Assembly (NCBI GenBank): GCA_964430735.1
Contig: CAYSFB010000009.1
Location: 5,492-69,491 of the forward strand
Origin: an uncultured Planctomycetia bacterium
GTDB taxonomy: Bacteria; Omnitrophota; Gorgyraeia; 2-02-FULL-51-18; JAGOUK01
Length of the DNA stretch: 64,000 nt
Reading direction: 5' to 3'
Positions 2-63,935 of the stretch are shown one piece after another; positions within the stretch are counted from its first letter, which is position 1, and the number at the start of each line of letters is the position of its first letter. A model generated the notes under the pieces. That model saw nothing but the letters and a program-made list of their open reading frames with translations. It ran no database searches and had not been told where the DNA came from. The position numbers and the translations under genes are program-made.

Positions 2-3000
2 GCGGGCTACACTGGTTTTGGGACCGCCGCAGCCGTCGTGCGCCTGGACCGGGCTGCAGACACAGCGGAAGTCATCGCCGCTGTTTTTTATGCTCCGGAA
101 CAGGAATGGGACGGGACCAAAGGATTGCTGATCGAAGCCTCGAAGCATGAGCCGGGTATCCGTGTGAACGGCAAGCGCTGGGACCGGATGCGGGAGCTTG
201 AGCCGGATCAGAACCAACGGATATTCGTTCACCGACGAATTTCCGATGCGCTGACGCAGCCCGGAGGCCTTGATTTTTATTCGGAGCGGTCCTCGTCATC
301 TCTTGAATTGGCGCGGATCATTTTGGGGGTCGACGGCATCTCGGCGTTTGCGAGCAGCCGGACCAAATATTGGGATTTGCTGCCGGCGTTGTATCTGATC
401 CAAAAAGCGGGAGGATCCGCCGTTCGCCTCGATGACGGCCGGCCGATCGTCTTCAAGGCGTCGGATCTTGAATCCGGGGACACGTATTCGGATCCCTTCA
501 TCGTCGGCCGTCCCGAGGCGGTCGCCCGAATAGCGCCCAAAGCGGCGCGGCTGGCGGAAAACGTTCGCGACAACATTCGCAGGGATCTCTTGAGTCATGA
601 TCCTCAGATTGCGACGAAGACCGAGGGATTTTTGGCGCGTCTTTACCTGGCGATGGAGCGAACCATGGGCTCGATCGTCGAGAAGGCCAGGACGGGCGTG
701 ATCGATCCGGCGCAACCCATCCGGCTGCTCAAGGATTCGCCGGAAGCCGCATCGGTCTCGGACCGGCCGCTGCGCGTCGGCGTGCTGGCGCTGGCGGCGA
801 ACCCGCTCAACTGGGGCCATGTCCTCCTGGCGCTCATGACGATGGATCAGTTGAATCTCGACAAGGTGGTCTTCCTGGTTCAGGGCGAGATCCAGTACAA
901 AAATATTCCCGAGGCCGACCGGGTTCCGACCCGGAAGCGCCATGAGATGGTCGTCGACGCGCTCAAGGAGCTCCAGCCTCTCATCGAGTACACGGATATC
1001 GCGCTCGACAATCAGACGATCGGGGAATTTAATTTTCCAAAAATCCTCCAGATGAACCCGGACCGGAAGATCAAGCTTTTTTACATTTCGGGAACGGAAA
1101 CACGGGAAAGAACCGCAAAGATCGGCACCAATATCCGGCAGTCGGTCGAGCAAAACCGGATTCTCGAGAATCCGAATCATGAGGTTGGCTGGGCCGTGAT
1201 CCCGCGCGGCTCGGGCGATTTTGGAAACAGGGTCACGCAGGCGGATCTCGACGCGCTGGTCGCGGAGCTTGGTTTTGATCCCGCTTCGCTGGAAACGCGC
1301 GTGATCATGGATCCCGACATCGATCTTGGCGTGAGCTCCACCTACTACCGGACCGCGCATGACCCGTCCGCTGTGCCGCGAGCGGTGGATCAGGCGGCGA
1401 TCGCCAACGGATTTTATTGGCATCCGCCGATCGATCCGGGCACGGGAAAGCCGGCACTCTCTGATGCGGAGATGTTCGGCGCAAAGCTCAGGCCGTTGGC
1501 GGAAAAAATTGCGGACCGCATTTTGGCCGTGATCCCTGCTGAGGGCGGAATGGTCTCAATCGACGGGCCTTCGGGTTCCGGCAAGTCGAGCCTTGCCGTC
1601 GAAGTTCAGTCGGCACTTCGGGCCAGAGGACGCGGAGGCATTGTGATCGGTTTGGACGTGCGGATGCGCGACCGGGCCTGGCGGCAGGCGGTACACAAGC
1701 TGGTGGTCGGCGAGGTCCTGTCCGAGTCGGAGATCGAACTGATTCGGAGCCGAACACCCGACGTCTTGAACCATCAGCCGGGACAGGAGTTTTTGGGCGA
1801 AGAGCTGTTCATGGACCATGAGGGGATCCGCCGCGACGTCCTGGAACCGGTGCACAAATTTTTCCAATCCGATGATCAAGAATTCGTGCTCAAGGTTCGC
1901 GACGCATATGACCAGTCCACCAAGAAGGTTCTGGCCGAAAAGGAATATCCTCCTATCCGTAAAGGCGACATCGTCCTCGCCGAGGGTAAATACGGCAACC
2001 GCGAGGAGCTGGCTCCGTACTACGCATTCCGGATCCGGTTGAGAGACAATCGCGAGCGGGTGCGGGCGAGGTTCGAGATCCGGCAGCGCCGCCAAAGTCC
2101 CTATGACGCTGACCGCCAGGTCAAGTTCTTCAACCTTTCGCTCGGTCCGAGTTACGACAAGGTTTATGCTCCCAGGACGTGGTCGGCAATCGACTTGGTC
2201 GCCGACATCGAAGGGGATGACTGGACGGTCGCGGATGTCCGGACAACCGAAGGTCAAGGGGCCCGATTGTCTCTTTATGAGGGGGCCTTGATCGATCTTC
2301 GTGCGGATGGGGCGGACGATCGAGGCTTGAACCGGATTCGTGTGCTGAGGCGGCTGGGGCCGCATTCAAGCAGCTGGTTGGCGGCAGCAGAGCCCGTGGA
2401 TGGCCGCCGTTTTTCGGTCAAGCAATTGCTGGCCGATGAATCTGAAGACCCGTATATCAGGAGCAACGAGTTCGAATCGGCCGGGGTGTTCGATGACGCG
2501 ATGGCCCTGCACGGCATCCGGGACCTGGGTCTTTACCTGGAATCCCGTAAGATCGGTGTCAAGGTCGCGATGCCCGCTTCGTATGATTTGGCGCAAACGC
2601 GGATCGGCTGGCTTCCTGAGGATAAGATCCGCATTGCGCCCTACGTGCCGGGCCGCACCATGGATGAGTGGATCGCATCGCGTCCGGATCTGCGGGAACG
2701 GCTTCGGGTGCTGCGATCCCTTGCACAGGCCTTCTCGGAACTGGAGCGCCTGGGTCTTCCGGGCGTGTGGGATATCAAATCCGGAAACATCATCATCGAT
2801 GACGGAGGAACCCCGTGGCTGATCGATTACAATCGGATGCGGATCTCACCGACCGGTGAGTTCATGGAGATTGTCCGCAAAACGCTTCGTGGAATGATGA
2901 GGGTGCCCCGGGCGTGGTCCGGCATGTCCTTGGGCGAATTGGCGGCGGCCATCCCAGACGGCAGCATTCAAGATTCCAGGCAAAAATCGTTGATTGATGC

Positions 3001-6000
3001 CGCCGAGCGGCGCGGAAGGATTCGTGATTATCTTGAGGAACGGGGTTCGGCGCTTGCGGGGTTCCAGAGGTCCAGCGGGTGGAAGGCCCCGGCCGAACTG
3101 ACGCGCGGCGATCGGGATTGGCTGGCGATGGCGCTTCTCAACTCCGTCCGGGATCATATGAGCTCGGACGAATGGGAGAGCCCCGATTCCAACGATATGT
3201 ATCTTTACCGCGGGCAGAAGCTGCAAGAGGTTCTGGAGCTTCGCGGGTATTACCGGTCGGAAACGTTCAACCGTCTTGCCGCCCGCGTCCTGGGTGAGGA
3301 CCTGGCCCGCAACGGCGGCACCGCCCTGGCCGTTCAGGCGCTCAAGCTCACGCTGAACAACCTGATTGAGGACATGCTGCGCGGGGATGTTCAGCCCAAG
3401 CCGATCGCTCCGACGAGACTGGAGTGGATCGTGTTCAAGTTCTTCAGTGACAGCCAAAACCTGGCCAAAGAAGGGTTTGCGGAATTCGTCGAACAGCTTT
3501 CGCTCGGAGTTCTGCTGCCGCTGGCGCTCGGAGCCGTTTCCACGGCGCTTTTTCTCAACAATCACGCGGTTCTGGCAGCAAGCATCGGATTCTGGGTTCT
3601 GGCGTATTACGCCAGCAGGCCCATCATCGAATACGCCGATAAAAAATTCGGTCTCCACACCTCTTGGGAACAAAAAATCTACCACGCCAAGATCTATGAT
3701 TACCTGATGCGGTCTGACCTCAAGTCCTTCGCGGCGGACCGGAGGAAGTATGAAGACCGGATCGGACGTCTGCTGGGTGCTTATGAGGCGGATGACGCCC
3801 GCGCCCTGGGCTCCATCGAGACCGCTCTCGAAGCGGCGATCCGCATCGGCGGTGAGAACTCGGCTCCGGCGCTGGATCTGCGCCGGCGCTGGGAGATGGC
3901 GCGGATCGACGGGATGGCGGTTCAGTCGGAGCTCAGTTATCTTCTCCGCCGGGTTCTGCCGCGGGCGTTCACGGAGCGGCGCTGGTTCCCGCGTGACCCG
4001 CAAAGCCGGCGCAAAATCATCCAGGTCGCCGAGAACGCCGAGTATCTTCGCGCGAACGGCGCCTCGGTCCAGGCCGTTCTTCTGATGATCGCCAAGGAAG
4101 CGGCCGACAACCTGAGTCTTGAGGAACAGAAGATCCTGCACCGGGCGCTGCCGGAGCTTTTTACCGGCACGGCGGGGTCTGGCCGCGAATCGAACATGGA
4201 TCGGGTCATTGAGCGTGTCCGTGCCAGAAAAGACCTCGCGGATGTCCTGGGTCTGCACCGCCATCGAATGCAGCAGTTGGAGAAAAAAAAGGGAACGGAT
4301 CGGCTGCGCGCAGAGGATCTGAATGATTTGGACGAATCAGACCGGGTCATCTACCGTGACGCGTATATCCGCACGATGGAACGCCTGATGCGTGAGGGTT
4401 TGCCGGAGGCGGCGGCGCCGATTGCGTCGGAGATCCGCGTGGAAGATGTGGTCGACGCCTATCTTTTGTCGGACCTCTACCGGCTGGCCGAACTTCGGAA
4501 AAAAGCGGACCGGGTCGACCAATTGACCACGCCGCTCTACGTGCGCCGCGTGGAGGCCCTGCCCCCGTTATGGGCGTCGTTGATGGAACGGCTGGCGCAG
4601 ATGCCCGATGGCCGCCTTCAGGTGCCATCGGATCGTATCCGGCGCTGGTCCGCGCTCATAGCGGACGTTCGGAAAATTGGAACGGACACGGTGTATATCG
4701 CTTCAAGTCGATTCAAATACCCAGAACCGGCGAGCGGCCAGCCGGAACAGGACCGGCTCGCCGCTTTGGATAATTCCAACGGAAAAGCCGGCGCCCGGTT
4801 GGCGGATGCGGAATCCGCGGACGGTGCGGCTTCACCGGCCGAAGAGTTGCGCCGTCTTTGGAGCGAATTCATCACCACTCTTGAGGAGGGCGAGTCCCTG
4901 CGTCCTTTGACAGAAGCCTCTTTTGCGCGGCGCGTTCAAATCGCCGCAAGGGCTAGGGGGCAGCTGGATGTGGTCGGCGATTGGGTCGAGCGTTATTCGC
5001 TTGAAGCGCCTTTGGATGTGGCTATTGGAATTGAGCGGCTCGAGAAGCTCGAGGCGCCGGCGTATCATGTGCACGCAATCCCGGGGGACCGGATCGAGCG
5101 CCTGATTCTGGATGCCGGCGCAGCCAAAGGGAAGGTTGGCAGGATTCGGCTCTCGATCGGCCGTTTGTCCGGACGTTCGGACGCTCCGGAACTTCGCACC
5201 CGGCAGGCCTTTGCCAAATTCCTGACCGCGCCGCAGGCGGTCGGCAACAACCGCGAGCTCGTCCAACGGATCGCAGATTCCTTCATTTTTGACAAGGAAA
5301 CGGAGGAATCCGCTCCAGTCCGACGTCCCGCGAGCCGGACCGAACAAATTAATAGCGAGCTCGAGGCGATCGTGCGTGAGCATCACGCTCTTGCCTGGTT
5401 CGTCTTAGAAAGAACGGCTAAAAACAACCATATTTGGGTCGTCAGGGCCTATGACACTTTTATGCAGTTTTATAACTCCCTCCCGGACGAAGAAAAGCGT
5501 GCCGGCAGCCGAAAAATCGCCGAGTCGGACAGGGACTTTCAAGACAGCATTTCGGTATTGAAAGGGGTGATCCGGTCGGATTATCAAACGGGGTATCGCA
5601 AGCTGATCGAACTTTATGTTGCCGACGAAAAGGTCCGCGGACTTATTTCGGAATTCAAAAAGCTCAACCCGAAGCATGGCGCGCGTCTGGCTGAGGACGA
5701 AGTGAAATGGCCGTTTGCGGTCTTGCAGCAGGGCGAGCTGGCGGATGATGCAAAAAAACGGCTGACATTCGAATCAGACCGCACAACGATTCCGGCTGGC
5801 GCCAAATCGGCGGTCTCCTACTTCCGATCCGTAAAAGAAGCCGCTTCGCGCGCAGAGGCTCTCTATCCCAGGCTTATGGAATTTTTGTCACTTCTTCACC
5901 AATACACAATCAATCATAACCCTTCAGAAACGACCCTGAATGCGATACATGTGCACTATGTGAGCATGACCGAGGCGGTCCAGGTTTGGAATAAAGACCG

Positions 6001-7855
6001 GTCTCCGCTTCTCGGAACGGCGGGAGCAAAAAGCTGGCTCAATCTGTTCGACCGGATCGACCGGTATTTGGATGAATACGGATTGCGCCGGCGGATGGTG
6101 CTTGGGGCATCGGTGCCGGGCGATACGGGTGAGGCGCGCACCGGTATCGCGGATCAGGCGCCGCGAGGCGCATTGCGTGACCGGCTTGAGCTCGAGATGC
6201 TGCGTTTCTTGAGCCGGGAAGGGTCGGGTGTGGGACTCTCTGCGCGATCCATCAAGGAGGGGCTGCTGGCCCTTGGCCTGCTTGTCGGCGCATTGGATCT
6301 CACCAACCGGGCGGAATGGCTGACACGACAGGGGCTTTTGGACAAAGCCGGAGGGCGCCGGGGCAAGCAGGCGAACCTGTACCGGGTGTCCGCCAAGGGG
6401 CGGGAGGCCGTTGATTTTTATTCCGCGAATCCGGCCTCAGAAGCCGGGCTCAAGCGCACGACTGCCGTGCCCGCGGATTGGACGGGGCCGTCAGGTTCGC
6501 GTCTTGCGGCGGGACCGGACGTGCAGGAGCAGATCCGGCGCTGGCATGAAGCGGGCGGAGCGCCCCGACGCATCCTGCGCATTCTCATCAATGAGGATGA
6601 CGAAGACCAGCGGATGTTGATCCGGCTTCGGCTCATGAAACGGAGCTTCGCTGACGATGCCGTGATCGAGGAGTATCCGCGGTCCGAAGAAGCGCTTGAA
6701 GCGTTCCGCCGGCAGCTCCAGAGCGGGAAGCCCTACGACCTTGTTATCACCGACCACAACACCAAATCCATGAGCACGGGCGCGGAGCTGATTCGGCAGG
6801 CCCGGCACGAAGAGATGTCCGCCGCCACCACCCCTTCGGTCATCATATATCAAAGCGCGACCCTGGACGAGGCGATGGATCAGCTCGGATCGGAGCTCGA
6901 CCGCCAAAACCTGTTTTTTGTCGACAAGCTGAACTTATTTCGCGATCTGACCCGTATCCTTGACGCCGTCGTTGACGAAACGCCGACTCAGGGAACCCGG
7001 CTTGCCAAAACCGTGCCGGCGCGATCCTCCGACCAACCGTTGGAATCGTTTCTTGTGTCGGTTCGAAAGGCCCGGCCCCGTCAGAATGGCATCCTGGCGT
7101 TGGAGCGTGGAGTGTCTTCCGGGCTTCCCGGCGGCCGCCGTCCGATCACGCGGTTCCGGCTTCAGTCGGGCGATTGGTTCGAGCGGCAGGTTGTGCGGCG
7201 TGAGTGGACGCCCCTTTTCGTCGATGGAGCTGTGGACCGGGATTTGTGGACGGCTGCCCCGGCATTCAAAGCCGCGCTATCAACCGGAATGGAACCCGCC
7301 AATTATCTGATTGATTTGGATCGACTTTTTTCTGATGTTCCGGACGAGGATGTCCGCCGTCGTCTCCTGAACCGGGTCGTGCGCGTGGCGGAGACCATCG
7401 AAGCTTCCGGAGCGGGCCGCATCGTCGACGTGAGCGTGGTTGATTGGCGCTCGCGTACGATCGCCGGAGCTCCTTCGGTGTTGCTGTGGAATCTGACCGA
7501 TCCGGGTGTTTTGGACCGGGTGGGGGATTACGATCTTCAGATGCAGTACCAGCAGAGCGAGAACGAAATTCTGCCGATTTTGAGTTCGATTTTATTGTCG
7601 AACCTCATGGCGCGTATCGCGCACACCGAAGATCCCGCGCTTCGGGCATCCAGAATACGGGACGCCGCACCGATTTTTGCTTCCTTGACGACCGGACCGC
7701 AGTTGGCGCTATCCGAAGCTTATTTGAAACAAATGAAGACCTACGATCCGGCTCTGCAGTACCGGACGATCCGGCCGCTCCAGCTTCGCGGCCAACTGGA
7801 GCTTGCCTTCTATCTGCAGAGCCTTTCCCGCAAGTGGACCGAACAGTCCGCCTAG
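2..7855 (+). CDS. Giant multidomain protein (>2605 aa, 5'-truncated at window edge). Domains: IMPase-like phosphatase, NadD/NMNAT-like nucleotidyltransferase, uridine-kinase/PRK-family P-loop kinase, APH/protein-kinase-like fold, C-terminal receiver(REC)-like domain
   Basis: Single uninterrupted ORF; frame is open from nt 2 (first in-frame start in ORF track is GTG at 38). IMPase C-terminal motif WDLLPALYLIQKAGG (nt ~380-430). HxGH nucleotidyltransferase motif NPLNWGH (nt ~805-820) plus ISGTETR (ISxTxxR, nt ~1090). Walker A IDGPSGSGKSS (nt ~1560-1600) followed by a Udk-like DIVLAEGKY...RIRLRDNRERVRARFEIRQRR block. Kinase-like WDIKSGNIIID...LIDYN (nt ~2765-2835). REC-like ILRILINEDDED...DLVITDHNTKSMSTGAELI (nt ~6560-6800). 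Confidence 0.6.
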   Translation, partial: AGYTGFGTAAAVVRLDRAADTAEVIAAVFYAPEQEWDGTKGLLIEASKHEPGIRVNGKRWDRMRELEPDQNQRIFVHRRISDALTQPGGLDFYSERSSSSLELARIILGVDGISAFASSRTKYWDLLPALYLIQKAGGSAVRLDDGRPIVFKASDLESGDTYSDPFIVGRPEAVARIAPKAARLAENVRDNIRRDLLSHDPQIATKTEGFLARLYLAMERTMGSIVEKARTGVIDPAQPIRLLKDSPEAASVSDRPLRVGVLALAANPLNWGHVLLALMTMDQLNLDKVVFLVQGEIQYKNIPEADRVPTRKRHEMVVDALKELQPLIEYTDIALDNQTIGEFNFPKILQMNPDRKIKLFYISGTETRERTAKIGTNIRQSVEQNRILENPNHEVGWAVIPRGSGDFGNRVTQADLDALVAELGFDPASLETRVIMDPDIDLGVSSTYYRTAHDPSAVPRAVDQAAIANGFYWHPPIDPGTGKPALSDAEMFGAKLRPLAEKIADRILAVIPAEGGMVSIDGPSGSGKSSLAVEVQSALRARGRGGIVIGLDVRMRDRAWRQAVHKLVVGEVLSESEIELIRSRTPDVLNHQPGQEFLGEELFMDHEGIRRDVLEPVHKFFQSDDQEFVLKVRDAYDQSTKKVLAEKEYPPIRKGDIVLAEGKYGNREELAPYYAFRIRLRDNRERVRARFEIRQRRQSPYDADRQVKFFNLSLGPSYDKVYAPRTWSAIDLVADIEGDDWTVADVRTTEGQGARLSLYEGALIDLRADGADDRGLNRIRVLRRLGPHSSSWLAAAEPVDGRRFSVKQLLADESEDPYIRSNEFESAGVFDDAMALHGIRDLGLYLESRKIGVKVAMPASYDLAQTRIGWLPEDKIRIAPYVPGRTMDEWIASRPDLRERLRVLRSLAQAFSELERLGLPGVWDIKSGNIIIDDGGTPWLIDYNRMRISPTGEFMEIVRKTLRGMMRVPRAWSGMSLGELAAAIPDGSIQDSRQKSLIDAAERRGRIRDYLEERGSALAGFQRSSGWKAPAELTRGDRDWLAMALLNSVRDHMSSDEWESPDSNDMYLYRGQKLQEVLELRGYYRSETFNRLAARVLGEDLARNGGTALAVQALKLTLNNLIEDMLRGDVQPKPIAPTRLEWIVFKFFSDSQNLAKEGFAEFVEQLSLGVLLPLALGAVSTALFLNNHAVLAASIGFWVLAYYASRPIIEYADKKFGLHTSWEQKIYHAKIYDYLMRSDLKSFAADRRKYEDRIGRLLGAYEADDARALGSIETALEAAIRIGGENSAPALDLRRRWEMARIDGMAVQSELSYLLRRVLPRAFTERRWFPRDPQSRRKIIQVAENAEYLRANGASVQAVLLMIAKEAADNLSLEEQKILHRALPELFTGTAGSGRESNMDRVIERVRARKDLADVLGLHRHRMQQLEKKKGTDRLRAEDLNDLDESDRVIYRDAYIRTMERLMREGLPEAAAPIASEIRVEDVVDAYLLSDLYRLAELRKKADRVDQLTTPLYVRRVEALPPLWASLMERLAQMPDGRLQVPSDRIRRWSALIADVRKIGTDTVYIASSRFKYPEPASGQPEQDRLAALDNSNGKAGARLADAESADGAASPAEELRRLWSEFITTLEEGESLRPLTEASFARRVQIAARARGQLDVVGDWVERYSLEAPLDVAIGIERLEKLEAPAYHVHAIPGDRIERLILDAGAAKGKVGRIRLSIGRLSGRSDAPELRTRQAFAKFLTAPQAVGNNRELVQRIADSFIFDKETEESAPVRRPASRTEQINSELEAIVREHHALAWFVLERTAKNNHIWVVRAYDTFMQFYNSLPDEEKRAGSRKIAESDRDFQDSISVLKGVIRSDYQTGYRKLIELYVADEKVRGLISEFKKLNPKHGARLAEDEVKWPFAVLQQGELADDAKKRLTFESDRTTIPAGAKSAVSYFRSVKEAASRAEALYPRLMEFLSLLHQYTINHNPSETTLNAIHVHYVSMTEAVQVWNKDRSPLLGTAGAKSWLNLFDRIDRYLDEYGLRRRMVLGASVPGDTGEARTGIADQAPRGALRDRLELEMLRFLSREGSGVGLSARSIKEGLLALGLLVGALDLTNRAEWLTRQGLLDKAGGRRGKQANLYRVSAKGREAVDFYSANPASEAGLKRTTAVPADWTGPSGSRLAAGPDVQEQIRRWHEAGGAPRRILRILINEDDEDQRMLIRLRLMKRSFADDAVIEEYPRSEEALEAFRRQLQSGKPYDLVITDHNTKSMSTGAELIRQARHEEMSAATTPSVIIYQSATLDEAMDQLGSELDRQNLFFVDKLNLFRDLTRILDAVVDETPTQGTRLAKTVPARSSDQPLESFLVSVRKARPRQNGILALERGVSSGLPGGRRPITRFRLQSGDWFERQVVRREWTPLFVDGAVDRDLWTAAPAFKAALSTGMEPANYLIDLDRLFSDVPDEDVRRRLLNRVVRVAETIEASGAGRIVDVSVVDWRSRTIAGAPSVLLWNLTDPGVLDRVGDYDLQMQYQQSENEILPILSSILLSNLMARIAHTEDPALRASRIRDAAPIFASLTTGPQLALSEAYLKQMKTYDPALQYRTIRPLQLRGQLELAFYLQSLSRKWTEQSA

Positions 7856-7917: not shown

Positions 7918-8418
7918 ATGTTCCTGAACGATCCCGACGATCCCCAGCCCGACCTCAGAACCCACTTCATGCGCGAGGCGCTCCGCCAGGCGGAAAAAGC
8001 GCTCGAGCGCGACGAAGTGCCGATCGGCGTGGTGATCGTTCACAACCGCCGCGTCATCGCCAAAGCCTTCAACCAGACCAACCTCCTCAAAGACCCAACC
8101 GCCCACGCGGAAATGATCGCGATCACCCAGGCCGCCGCTCACTTCGAACACGGCAGCGGGCGTTTGCTTGAGACCGAGATTTATTCCACGGTCGAGCCCT
8201 GCGCGATGTGCCTGGGCGCCATCATCCACGCCCGGATCCCGAAGCTTTTTTACGGCGCTCCGAATGAAAAGTACGGCGCCTGCGGTTCCGTCGTCGACCT
8301 TCTCAAGGAAGGCCGGTGGAATCACGAGGTCCAGGTCGAAAAAGGCCTGCTCGGACCCGAAGCCGCCGCGCTCATGCAGGGTTTTTTCCGGGCCAAACGC
8401 GCCAAGCTCGCGGAGTAA
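7918..8418 (+). CDS. tadA: tRNA-specific adenosine deaminase
   Basis: CDA-fold zinc motifs HAEMIAI and VEPCAMCLGAI; ~166 aa. Confidence 0.85.
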   Translation: MFLNDPDDPQPDLRTHFMREALRQAEKALERDEVPIGVVIVHNRRVIAKAFNQTNLLKDPTAHAEMIAITQAAAHFEHGSGRLLETEIYSTVEPCAMCLGAIIHARIPKLFYGAPNEKYGACGSVVDLLKEGRWNHEVQVEKGLLGPEAAALMQGFFRAKRAKLAE

Positions 8419-8471: not shown

Positions 8472-8563
<92 letters not shown>

Positions 8564-8565
8564 AA

Positions 8566-8665
8566 CTTCGCTAAAAAGGCGTCATCTGCTTCGTTGCTCG
8601 GCGCTTGCGGACCGTAGAGTCCGCGGCGCGCCTCGCGCCTCGCATCTGACGCCTTTTTAGCGAAG
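8566..8665 (+). ncRNA. ~100-nt GC-rich structured hairpin element in the 3' flank of tRNA-Ser. A paralogous copy sits at 46929..47030. Possible terminator, processing or leader element.
   Basis: Long outer stem cttcgctaaaaaggcgtca / tgacgcctttttagcgaag enclosing inner hairpin gcggac-cgtaga-gtccgc. Same architecture, with compensatory substitutions, occurs after the second tRNA-Ser. Confidence 0.55.
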
Positions 8666-8699
8666 TTTGATAAATGAAAGTTTAAATACGGGCGGGTTG

Positions 8700-46879: not shown

Positions 46880-46928
46880 CGTGTAGTCTTTAGAATTCTC
46901 TGGGGTGGACTGTGCAAAAACTTTTCAG

Positions 46929-47030
46929 TCTTCGGCAAAAAGGTCCCGGATGCGAGGCGCGACAAGCGCCGCGCACTCTACAGTGCGCAAGCGCGAAGCA
47001 ACGAAGCAGACGGGGCCTTTTTGCCGAAGA
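46929..47030 (-). ncRNA. Second copy of the ~100-nt structured hairpin element, in the 3' flank of tRNA-Ser(GGA) and the 5' leader of nuoJKLMN
   Basis: Reverse complement aligns to 8566..8665 (cttcggcaaaaaggccccgtctgcttcgttgcttcgcgcttgcgcactgtagagtgcgcgg...cgggacctttttgccgaag). Outer and inner stems retained with compensatory changes. Confidence 0.55.
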
Positions 47031-47031
47031 C

Positions 47032-47121
47032 TGGCGGAGAGACAGGGATTCGAACCCTGGAAACGGTTTCCCGTTTACACGCTTTCCAAGCGTGCTCCTT
47101 AAACCACTCGGACATCTCTCC
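47032..47121 (-). tRNA. tRNA-Ser (anticodon GGA)
   Basis: Reverse complement ggagagatgtccgagtggtttaaggagcacgcttGGAaagcgtg...ccctgtctctccgcca; long variable arm; paralogous to the tRNA-Ser at 8472. Confidence 0.9.
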
Positions 47122-47526: not shown

Positions 47527-48369
47527 CTACACCCTTTTGATCCGGACCCGCGTCTGAAGGGCGGACTGCGCGGAGCCTCGGAAGCTGCCGATGACCGGGG
47601 AGACCTGTTCAGGGGCATAAGCTGCCGCAATGGCCGCATAGCTGTCCGTGACGGCCAGGCCCGAGGTGGGATCGAACCCGCGCCAGCCCCCGCCTTCGAC
47701 ATAAACTTCGGCCCATGCGTGGAGTTCGTTTTCGGGCGTTCCTGGATCCCCCTCAAAATAACCGCTGACAAACCGGGCGGCCAGCCCCTGGGCCCGGCAG
47801 CACTCCATGAAGAATACCGTCAGGTCCCGGCAGGCCCCGCGCCGGTCTTCGAGGACCTTCAAAGCCGTCCAGGGCGCCCCGTCCGCGCGGTGGATGACCT
47901 GAAAAGCGGCGGCAATCGACCGGCACAGCTCCGGAAGAAACGCGATGACGGACGGACCGGTCCGCGCCGCGATCTCTTGTGAAAAAGCCGCGACCTGCGG
48001 AGCGATGACGCTCAGCCCTTCGAGGTAAGGCCTGAGAACGGCCGCGGTGGTCGCGGCGTAGGGGGTCTGAAGCTTGGAAAAAGCCGGATCCGCTGCGTAA
48101 TCAAAGGGATTGGACCGGTCGATGTCGATCCGACTGACCGCGCAGATCCGCAGCGAAGTCGCTCCTCCGCCGAACCAGACCCGGACCGCGTCATTGTCCA
48201 GCGGATCGATGATATCGGCGCGGAGCCTCGGAGCCGGGTCGACGAGAAGATCAAACGCGAGCAGCTTTTGGCTGCGGTTCTCGCGCGGCTTCAGATAAAG
48301 CGTGTGAGGTTCGAGGGAAACGGGCTGGGAATAGCGATATTCGAGTTCGTGCCGGATCTCAAGCCGCAT
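47527..48369 (-). CDS. Transglutaminase-like cysteine peptidase family protein
   Basis: Cys-His-Asp core: GACRDLTVFFMECCRAQGLAARFVSGY...HAWAEVYVEGGGWRGFDPT. Confidence 0.75.
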   Translation of the reverse strand: MRLEIRHELEYRYSQPVSLEPHTLYLKPRENRSQKLLAFDLLVDPAPRLRADIIDPLDNDAVRVWFGGGATSLRICAVSRIDIDRSNPFDYAADPAFSKLQTPYAATTAAVLRPYLEGLSVIAPQVAAFSQEIAARTGPSVIAFLPELCRSIAAAFQVIHRADGAPWTALKVLEDRRGACRDLTVFFMECCRAQGLAARFVSGYFEGDPGTPENELHAWAEVYVEGGGWRGFDPTSGLAVTDSYAAIAAAYAPEQVSPVIGSFRGSAQSALQTRVRIKRV

Positions 48370-63764: not shown

Positions 63765-63791
63765 ACAACTGAATAGCGACGTTCCGGCACC

Positions 63792-63935
63792 TAGCCCCGG
63801 CTGCGGGGTGAGGTTTAATGAGGGAATCGGGTGTGAATCCCGAGCGGTCCCGCCACGGTAAGAGGCCTTTCGAGGCCTTAAGTCCGAATACCACCGGAGC
63901 GTTATAACGACCCCAATGCCACGGCAGATGGCAAG
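63792..63935 (+). promoter_or_regulatory. Cobalamin (B12) riboswitch
   Basis: Core matches the Cbl consensus TTAATGAGGGAATCGGGTGTGAATCCCGAGCGGTCCCGCCACGGTAAGAGG (cf. btuB leader AATAGGGAATCCAGTGCGAATCTGGAGCTGACGCGCAGCGGTAAGG). B12-box GCCACGG; followed by RBS AAGGAGCT and an ATG at 63943. Confidence 0.7.

Follow-up and report, generated by a model that had tools for sequence, protein, structure and literature searches.

Directly behind each of the two tRNA-Ser genes in the 64,000-nucleotide stretch of DNA analysed here (the window) lies a GC-rich palindrome of about 100 nt, and the question that this locus raises is whether the palindrome serves the tRNA gene before it, the gene after it, or only itself. 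The tRNA-Ser(GCU) gene is located at 8472–8563 on the plus strand (ARAGORN; 58.3 bits with the Rfam tRNA model) and the tRNA-Ser(GGA) gene at 47032–47121 on the minus strand (ARAGORN and Rfam tRNA); both have an encoded CCA. Copy A of the palindrome spans 8564–8667 and folds best on the minus strand, copy B spans 46928–47031 and folds best on the plus strand; the first base of each (~104–105 nt) is the base directly 3′ of the CCA of tRNA-Ser. Pairing extends into the tRNA genes themselves, as the hairpin base of copy A is CA, the final 2 nt of tRNA-Ser(GCU); this CA (8562–8563) pairs with TG at 8668–8669, and in copy B CA at 47033–47032 pairs with TG at 46927–46926, so that with CA and TG included the full palindromes cover 8562–8669 and 46926–47033. 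Copy A precedes a CBS-GGDEF gene and copy B precedes nuoJKLMN; both flanking proteins, CBS-GGDEF and NuoJ, have their nearest named homologues in Candidatus Omnitrophota. On the other side, tRNA-Ser(GCU) is preceded by a tadA-like gene (7918–8418), just 5′ of which ends an ORF of 2605 aa (38–7855, plus strand).

The two copies are paralogous and align without gaps at 89% identity. On the tRNA-sense strand each folds into one long irregular hairpin (−64.0 kcal/mol for A, −64.1 for B; z = −7.5 and −8.4, respectively), with none of 200 shuffled sequences folding as well; an earlier note on this DNA, made from the sequence alone, had described a hairpin of ~100 nt behind both tRNA-Ser genes, and that description is borne out. 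The AAAAAGG motif, which the same note took for a bulge, is paired instead: the A-run of each copy pairs with the T-run of the opposite arm. Compensating differences between the stems were also rightly noticed, since of the 43 pairs in the A/B alignment (97.7% paired) nine differ in both partners and one in a single partner, and controls with slid partners give zero. Where the note saw selection on RNA structure, structure is indeed under selection, but not on the strand described; the reverse complement of the tRNA-sense strand is the better folder in both copies (−69.1 kcal/mol for A and −69.3 for B).

Within the palindromes, two core blocks can be recognized that are common to a much wider family. 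In copy A, CTGCTTCGTTGC is found at 8586–8597 (plus strand), its reverse strand GCAACGAAGCAG forming the 3′ side of two internal loops, and GCCTCGCATC at 8637–8646 (plus strand), its reverse strand GATGCGAGGC forming the 5′ side; between them, at 8607–8624 (plus strand), sequence and fold place a variable apical hairpin, P3 (gcggac-cgtaga-gtccgc). Sequence matches put the same blocks of copy B at 46998–47009 and 46949–46958 on the minus strand, and the two blocks occur in the 64-kb window at copies A and B only. A covariance model of the family (R1) matches copy A at 8570–8662 (minus strand) with 72.5 bits and copy B at 46933–47025 (plus strand) with 71.2 bits; the next best match in the window, at 48083–48164 on the minus strand, reaches 13.4 bits (E = 0.034); it falls within a long ORF and is probably due to chance. 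Copies A and B group with Omnitrophota WC_9 copies, with which they share the A-run/T-run outer stem; no clear target duplication was found flanking either of them.

The family was delineated by a pattern search for CTGCTTCGTTGC, a gap of 28–52 nt and GCCTCGCATC in one representative genome per species, for which about one match is expected by chance on our own estimate. The core was found in at least 120 genome stretches from about ten phyla, mostly away from tRNAs; the hosts listed are Acidobacteriota (including Aminicenantes and Thermoanaerobaculia), Verrucomicrobiota, Planctomycetota, Omnitrophota, Elusimicrobiota, Kiritimatiellia, Bacteroidota, Negativicutes (Phascolarctobacterium) and others, with Tibeticola, Comamonas, Alcaligenaceae and Burkholderiales among the beta-proteobacteria. 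Plasmids of Comamonas, Cupriavidus, Ralstonia, Mitsuaria, Variovorax and Martelella also carry copies, which are always unannotated; a phage origin was considered, and viral contigs gave no match. Single genomes can hold many copies (at least 5 in Tibeticola, at least 9 in Verrucomicrobia RA.bin147 and at least 15 in Acidobacteriota SMAG_U11850), and many matches end within ~30 nt of the end of a contig. Searches of Rfam 15 returned nothing for the window copy at gathering score or at E ≤ 10 on either strand, nothing for eight diverse members at E ≤ 1, and only tRNAs and a cobalamin riboswitch elsewhere in the window and 14 related loci. In the literature, the exact core, sought on both strands as DNA and as RNA, gave chance matches only, and keywords gave nothing specific to such a repeat; one paper among the matches (PMC4666352) deals with intrastrand triplex repeats. 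No neighbouring gene is characteristic of the family: clustering of the ORFs of 120 listed loci produced no protein family present in more than seven loci, no transposase family recurs in the 8-kb stretches around listed copies, and no RAYT, HUH or reverse transcriptase genes linked to copies were seen in the 120 listed loci. Orientation relative to flanking ORFs shows no bias, which is a weak result given a crude ORF caller and more than half of the copies overlapping spurious ORFs.

Read on its best-folding strand, the family shares an apical module of ~65 nt consisting of an outer stem (P1), a tandem GA/GA, a 3-bp helix UGC/GCA (sometimes GGC/GCC), a RAGGC / AACRNN loop, an inner stem (P2) and the variable P3; the stems vary and co-vary, and the loop letters are nearly invariant across phyla. 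In an alignment of 59 non-redundant copies, in which the two core blocks are fixed, having been imposed by the search, P1 and P2 change freely in sequence and keep their pairing: pairing is seen in 86.6% of cells and a change in both partners in 264, for a covariation score of 0.589 (shuffled controls, 0.17; slid partners, 0.12–0.15). The covariance model built on this alignment also finds copies with a differing core, and such variants narrow the essential letters to 5′ RAGGCGC and 3′ GCAACR. The smallest form has only the core and P1 (L011:2195–2252; also L171). Many larger units contain two modules 15–20 nt apart, convergent in all of the ~17 cases (L107, L031, L094, L044, L054, L037, L117, L096, L030, L027, L002, L111, L086, L051, L088, L042 and L093), so that, on either DNA strand, the well-folding strand is met first; the core of the second module is a variant, GGCRAGGCGC ... 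GCAACAMAGCC.

The mismatches in the stems point to the strand on which the structure is kept. Read in the tRNA sense the stems contain 85 A.C mismatches against 30 G.U, and most of the other mismatches are U.C/C.U tandems; on the reverse strand the former turn into G.U wobbles, a count in favour of that strand, and the latter into tandem G.A. With RNA parameters the reverse strand is the more stable in 56 of the 59 copies, by a mean of 9.8 kcal/mol (p = 4e-11), and with DNA parameters it folds better in 47 copies against 10. A mutation bias linked to replication or transcription cannot explain this asymmetry, because copies lie in either orientation relative to genes (by the weak orientation result above). 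Selection acts on the reverse strand in single-stranded form, and in the window this strand runs antisense to the two tRNAs as well as to the genes after them. During replication, template switching in quasi-palindromes mends both arms together, and the compensatory changes could owe something to this process; it does not account for the wobble bias on one strand.

Whether the element belongs to these tRNA-Ser loci is decided by the same junctions in relatives. In L124, whose CBS-GGDEF protein is 80% identical to that of the window, the 3′ end of tRNA-Ser is identical and is followed by CCA, 54 unrelated nt and the ATG, and in L125 (66% identical) a tRNA-Ser(CGA) is followed by the gene, in both cases without the element. 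At the nuoJ junction, L130 and L131 (NuoJ 74% identical) have tRNA-Arg, tRNA-Ser(GGA), 141 nt and nuoJ, again without the element; in L128 and L129 (NuoJ 76% identical) the order is tadA, tRNA-Ser, element, nuoJ. The element of L128 has linked core changes, CTGCTGCGTTGC with GCCTTGCATC, and an outer stem that is reshaped yet complementary; this copy too folds better on the reverse strand (−65.7 vs −52.3 kcal/mol). Sites are thus empty in L124, L130 and L131 and filled in the window and in L128, and because close relatives have the same tRNA-Ser/gene junctions empty, the element at these loci is an insertion polymorphism; it is neither a conserved part of the tRNA gene nor a leader. The tRNA-Ser of L128 (1181–1272), which joins tadA to nuoJ, is a chimera with the anticodon GCU and the 3′ end of the GGA gene (ctgtctctccgcca); two tRNA-Ser genes therefore recombined in that lineage, and the two genes, with or without elements, served as recombination points between lineages. 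The Logan assemblies break at tRNA-Ser, with L121–L123 starting one base 5′ of the gene and L124 inside it; such breaks fit an assembler confused by repeated tRNA-Ser 3′ halves and elements.

The relatives also bear on the proposal of the earlier note that the element is a structured leader or attenuator for the downstream genes. A promoter-like TTGACA-17 nt-TAGAAT lies between the insertion point and nuoJ at L128:1395–1430 and L130:1405–1440, and since this site is downstream of the insertion point, the element lies upstream of the likely nuoJ promoter. The positional counterpart in the window is the spacer between copy B and nuoJ (46880–46925, minus strand), in which only a weak look-alike, TTGCAC ... 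AGAATT, can be discerned by eye and a promoter scan calls none. The nuoJKLMN genes, which stand apart from the other nuo genes, are thus preceded by tRNA genes and by what appears to be a promoter of their own. The leader proposal accounts for the position of the element between a tRNA and a co-directional gene in both cases; it is nevertheless very improbable, as relatives have the same genes without the element and the promoter-like site after it, the two downstream genes are unrelated, and no riboswitch or leader matches.

Mobility is most readily seen in other sub-families, in which copies within one genome share a unit of defined length: 170 bp in Tibeticola, ~280 bp in Verrucomicrobia RA.bin147 and 185–225 bp in an Acidobacteriota MAG. 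With units of 105–280 bp, no coding capacity and many dispersed copies, the family has the size and copy number of miniature inverted-repeat elements (MITEs), and the ends of the units in these genomes are inverted repeats. The Tibeticola unit, GGCAACGCTGAACAAGTCCC ... GGGAACTTATTCAGCGTTGCC, lies between direct repeats of CTAA at four loci and TTAA at one; the Verrucomicrobia unit, GGGTCTGTGCAAAAATTA ... TAATTTTTGCACAGACCC, lies between direct TAA, and some Aminicenantes-type units are flanked by CTAG or TTAG. The typical target duplication of IS5 is the four-base YTAR. On direct reading of the ends of E. coli IS5A, GGAAGGTGCGAACAAGTCCCTG and GGAAGGTGCGAATAAG, those of Tibeticola resemble both, and the C/T difference between the two ends (GAACAAG / GAATAAG) is common to the Tibeticola units and IS5A. 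An origin inside IS5 was considered and rejected, as the covariance model finds nothing in E. coli IS5. Judged by their ends and duplications, the Tibeticola, Verrucomicrobia and Aminicenantes-type sub-families appear to behave as MITEs moved in trans by IS5-superfamily transposases. Inverted-repeat ends with a direct duplication were observed in these sub-families, with no direct repeat at the window copies or at the tRNA-adjacent copies, and the search for an autonomous partner or transposase for the sub-family of the window found none.

The position behind tRNA genes has a different pattern. Among the ~121 copies listed by the first scan, which was sampled without regard to tRNAs, none abuts a tRNA; the closest approach is that of a unit without the core, 30 nt behind tRNA-SeC. 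This unit (L073:1155–1352) is of the Acidobacteriota family and has precisely lost its main module (GCGGCGGCGGGCG|CTCGCGCC) and kept the second. Metagenomes were then scanned with a pattern of a tRNA T-arm, CCA, 12–42 nt and the left core block, which fixes both orientation and distance and so gives no frequency of adjacency. This produced 43 contigs, in 12 of which the covariance model confirms a genuine module, 0–15 nt after tRNA-Phe, Gln, Leu, Val, Gly, Tyr or Ser-GCU, or after tmRNA; one of the 12 (L141) lies behind a tRNA that ARAGORN did not call. In two further contigs the motif is visible by eye and is not called by the model, behind tRNA-Met in L155, where it is cut by the contig end, and behind tRNA-Ser-UGA in L157. 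Thirteen tRNA-adjacent cases were compared at their far ends: both copies of the window, L128, nine contigs from the 12 that the model confirms, and L157, which is not model-called. In 11 of them the hairpin ends in 2–6 contiguous nt complementary to the 3′ end of the adjacent tRNA, the chance of at least 2 nt being 1/16 per case. Longer traces are found beyond the module in three contigs: a 21-nt inverted copy of the 3′ part of tRNA-Tyr in L165 (after 1288, minus strand), an inverted copy of the tRNA-Gln acceptor strand in the flank of L156, and, in L141, 17 nt past the module, a direct repeat of ~30 nt from the end of the tRNA. The geometry at the CCA end is not due to chance, and insertion by an ordinary (DDE) transposase does not explain it. 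Copies marking the edge of an integrated island were considered and rejected, as the genes behind the tRNA-adjacent copies are prs, infC and a CDP-alcohol transferase, with no integrases.

Copies of the Omnitrophota type may have an effect on transcription. On both strands, copy A presents GGCGTCA...TGACGCC followed by TTTTT and copy B GGCCCCG...CGGGACC followed by TTTTT, and the A5/T5 pair that brackets the GC-rich stem is conserved in all eight Omnitrophota-type copies seen; most other sub-families are without a T-run. Because the GC-rich stem is bracketed by A5 and T5, each copy of this sub-family looks as if it may be a two-way intrinsic terminator. A simple terminator scan calls neither copy, its loop limit being exceeded by the 60-nt structured insert. 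In the empty-site relatives no obvious terminator can be read by eye behind the tRNA, and an insulating role for the window copies is plausible from these features.

What is established is that both copies belong to the family, that they are an insertion polymorphism, that one strand is favoured over the other and that other sub-families are mobile. Copies A and B are probably small, non-coding, non-autonomous selfish foldback repeats of the MITE or REPIN kind, from a family of very wide distribution; put most cautiously, the elements of the window are passengers lodged in a tolerated site behind tRNA genes. In this lineage of Candidatus Omnitrophota, a unit would have inserted precisely behind the CCA of each of two tRNA-Ser genes; its conserved loops would serve the propagation or persistence of the element itself, as folded RNA of the reverse strand or as single-stranded DNA, and its GC-rich stem with A5 and T5 would stop transcription from either side and insulate the tRNA from its neighbours. 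The other suggestion of the earlier note, a tRNA 3′-processing or terminator module, survives in part, as termination is possible; a general link to tRNAs (none of ~121 listed) and conservation at these loci do not. In its full form, as a module selected by the host for the 3′ end of tRNA-Ser, this explanation would make sense of an element that abuts the CCA at both tRNA-Ser genes and in L128, of a GC-rich stem followed by U5, and of relatives with no terminator obvious to the eye at the empty site; it is distinctly unlikely in view of those same junctions being empty in close relatives, of a family found mostly away from tRNAs and of selection on the antisense strand, and a hairpin that pairs with CCA would be expected to hinder 3′ maturation rather than help it.

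The strand asymmetry also counts against the foldback-repeat reading, since a cut-and-paste transposase works on double-stranded ends and does not explain why a central hairpin should be conserved on one strand in particular. One alternative, rather unlikely, is that the module itself is a functional structured RNA on the reverse strand, either a protein-binding hairpin or a new small ribozyme, with the MITE-like shells and tRNA-adjacent sites as mere vehicles that spread it. Invariant loop letters within co-varying stems in about ten phyla, G.U and tandem G.A signatures on one strand only, convergent modules whose well-folding sense is the first to be met by a transcript from either side, and the lack of any matching Rfam family would all agree with such an RNA; the units have no sigma-70-like promoter inside, though, their orientation is random relative to genes, the well-folding strand in the window is antisense to everything known to be transcribed there, and DNA folding parameters favour the same strand too. 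Movement through a single-stranded intermediate aimed at tRNA 3′ ends is an unlikely explanation as well; it could proceed by peel-and-paste with an HUH enzyme, as in IS200/IS605 or REPINs, or by tRNA-primed reverse transcription of the reverse-strand RNA, the complement of which would land directly after CCA. The folding asymmetry agrees with it, as do 15 copies lying 0–15 nt after the CCA of at least ten different tRNAs and a tmRNA, in each of which the tRNA-sense strand is the one that folds poorly (an orientation forced by the search), the far-end complementarity in 11 of 13 cases with the longer inverted copies of L165 and L156, and housekeeping neighbours without an integrase. Set against this, inverted-repeat ends with direct 3–4 bp duplications in other sub-families are a DDE hallmark, none of the ~121 copies listed without bias adjoins a tRNA, the listed loci have no linked gene for a reverse transcriptase, an HUH enzyme or a RAYT, and template switching in the quasi-palindrome could also extend stems into the flanks. 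A broader possibility, to be held tentatively, is that the ~65-nt module represents a new class of structured motif in about ten phyla, acting on one strand as RNA or single-stranded DNA, either in mobility aimed at CCA ends or as a catalytic or protein-binding RNA borne by MITEs; tRNA-primed copying and hairpin-guided single-strand insertion could be examples of such mobility at tRNA and tmRNA.

As a selfish foldback repeat, the element can be compared with several known systems. It is like the bacterial MITEs of the IS5 / PIF-Harbinger ('Tourist-like') type in being 100–280 bp long, non-coding, present in many copies and folded end to end, in having several sub-families with inverted-repeat ends and 3–4 bp TA-containing target duplications, and in the IS5-like ends of the Tibeticola-type units. 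Unlike these, it is most conserved at its centre, across phyla and in a strand-specific manner, and its ends differ between sub-families; the window copies show no target duplication, and E. coli IS5 is without the module. REP and REPIN sequences are extragenic palindromes, often in inverted pairs able to form a larger hairpin, that are common behind genes, are thought to be active when single-stranded and have been proposed as terminators or RNA stabilisers (PMC3337134, PMC3733652); REPs measure 20–40 bp, carry GTAG or CGTC as a tag at one end and are specific to a family or species (PMC3733652). The present module differs from them in its length of 65–110 nt and in two conserved internal loops (RAGGC / AACR) common across phyla, and GTAG is found only now and then, inside P3.

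The strand-specific hairpin, with variable stems and few conserved unpaired letters, is in these respects also like the attC sites of integrons. These are hairpins of 57–141 nt with variable stems and few conserved unpaired letters, which are recognised as folded single strands, one strand being active. The foldback repeat is unlike attC in lacking RYYYAAC / GTTRRRY boxes (the hairpin bases, read from the sequence, are CCAAAC...GTTTGAT in copy A and CCAGTC...GACTGAA in copy B), cassette arrays and a linked integron integrase. Comparison by eye with consensus sequences showed no fit to hammerhead, kink-turn, SRP domain IV, attC or box C/D. Correia- and ERIC-type repeats are transposon-like palindromes in transcribed intergenic regions, which can terminate or process transcripts. 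Each of these families is known from a single genus or family only, and none is known to have a core conserved across phyla.

Small palindromic repeats are usually lineage-specific and conserved at their ends, and a strand-specific core conserved in its loops from Acidobacteriota to Negativicutes, together with precise docking at CCA ends, is unusual for a MITE- or REPIN-like repeat; conservation of the core across phyla implies a shared, as yet unnamed molecular partner or activity. In practical terms, the repeat breaks metagenome assemblies, with many copies at contig ends, it occurs at tRNA and tmRNA 3′ ends in a fixed geometry, and it marks differences in gene order between relatives, such as the chimeric tRNA-Ser of L128. 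Compensatory changes in a hairpin adjacent to a tRNA do not on their own show that the host uses the hairpin as an RNA, as the selected strand can be the opposite one and the element can be a passenger.

Some observations were made in passing. In L001, two inverted copies of ~270 bp (417–686 and 4179–4477) bracket 3.5 kb containing two long ORFs that have no Pfam match, and a small GIY-YIG gene (4732–5127) adjoins the pair; together they may form a composite element. A further palindromic family of Tibeticola (L071:5960–6047 and L077:5098–5257) has a more distant core, TAGGCGC ... GCAACGCCC, for which the model gives only 17 bits. A cobalamin riboswitch aptamer (RF00174, 51.5 bits) lies at 63768–63912 on the plus strand, close to the right-hand end of the window.
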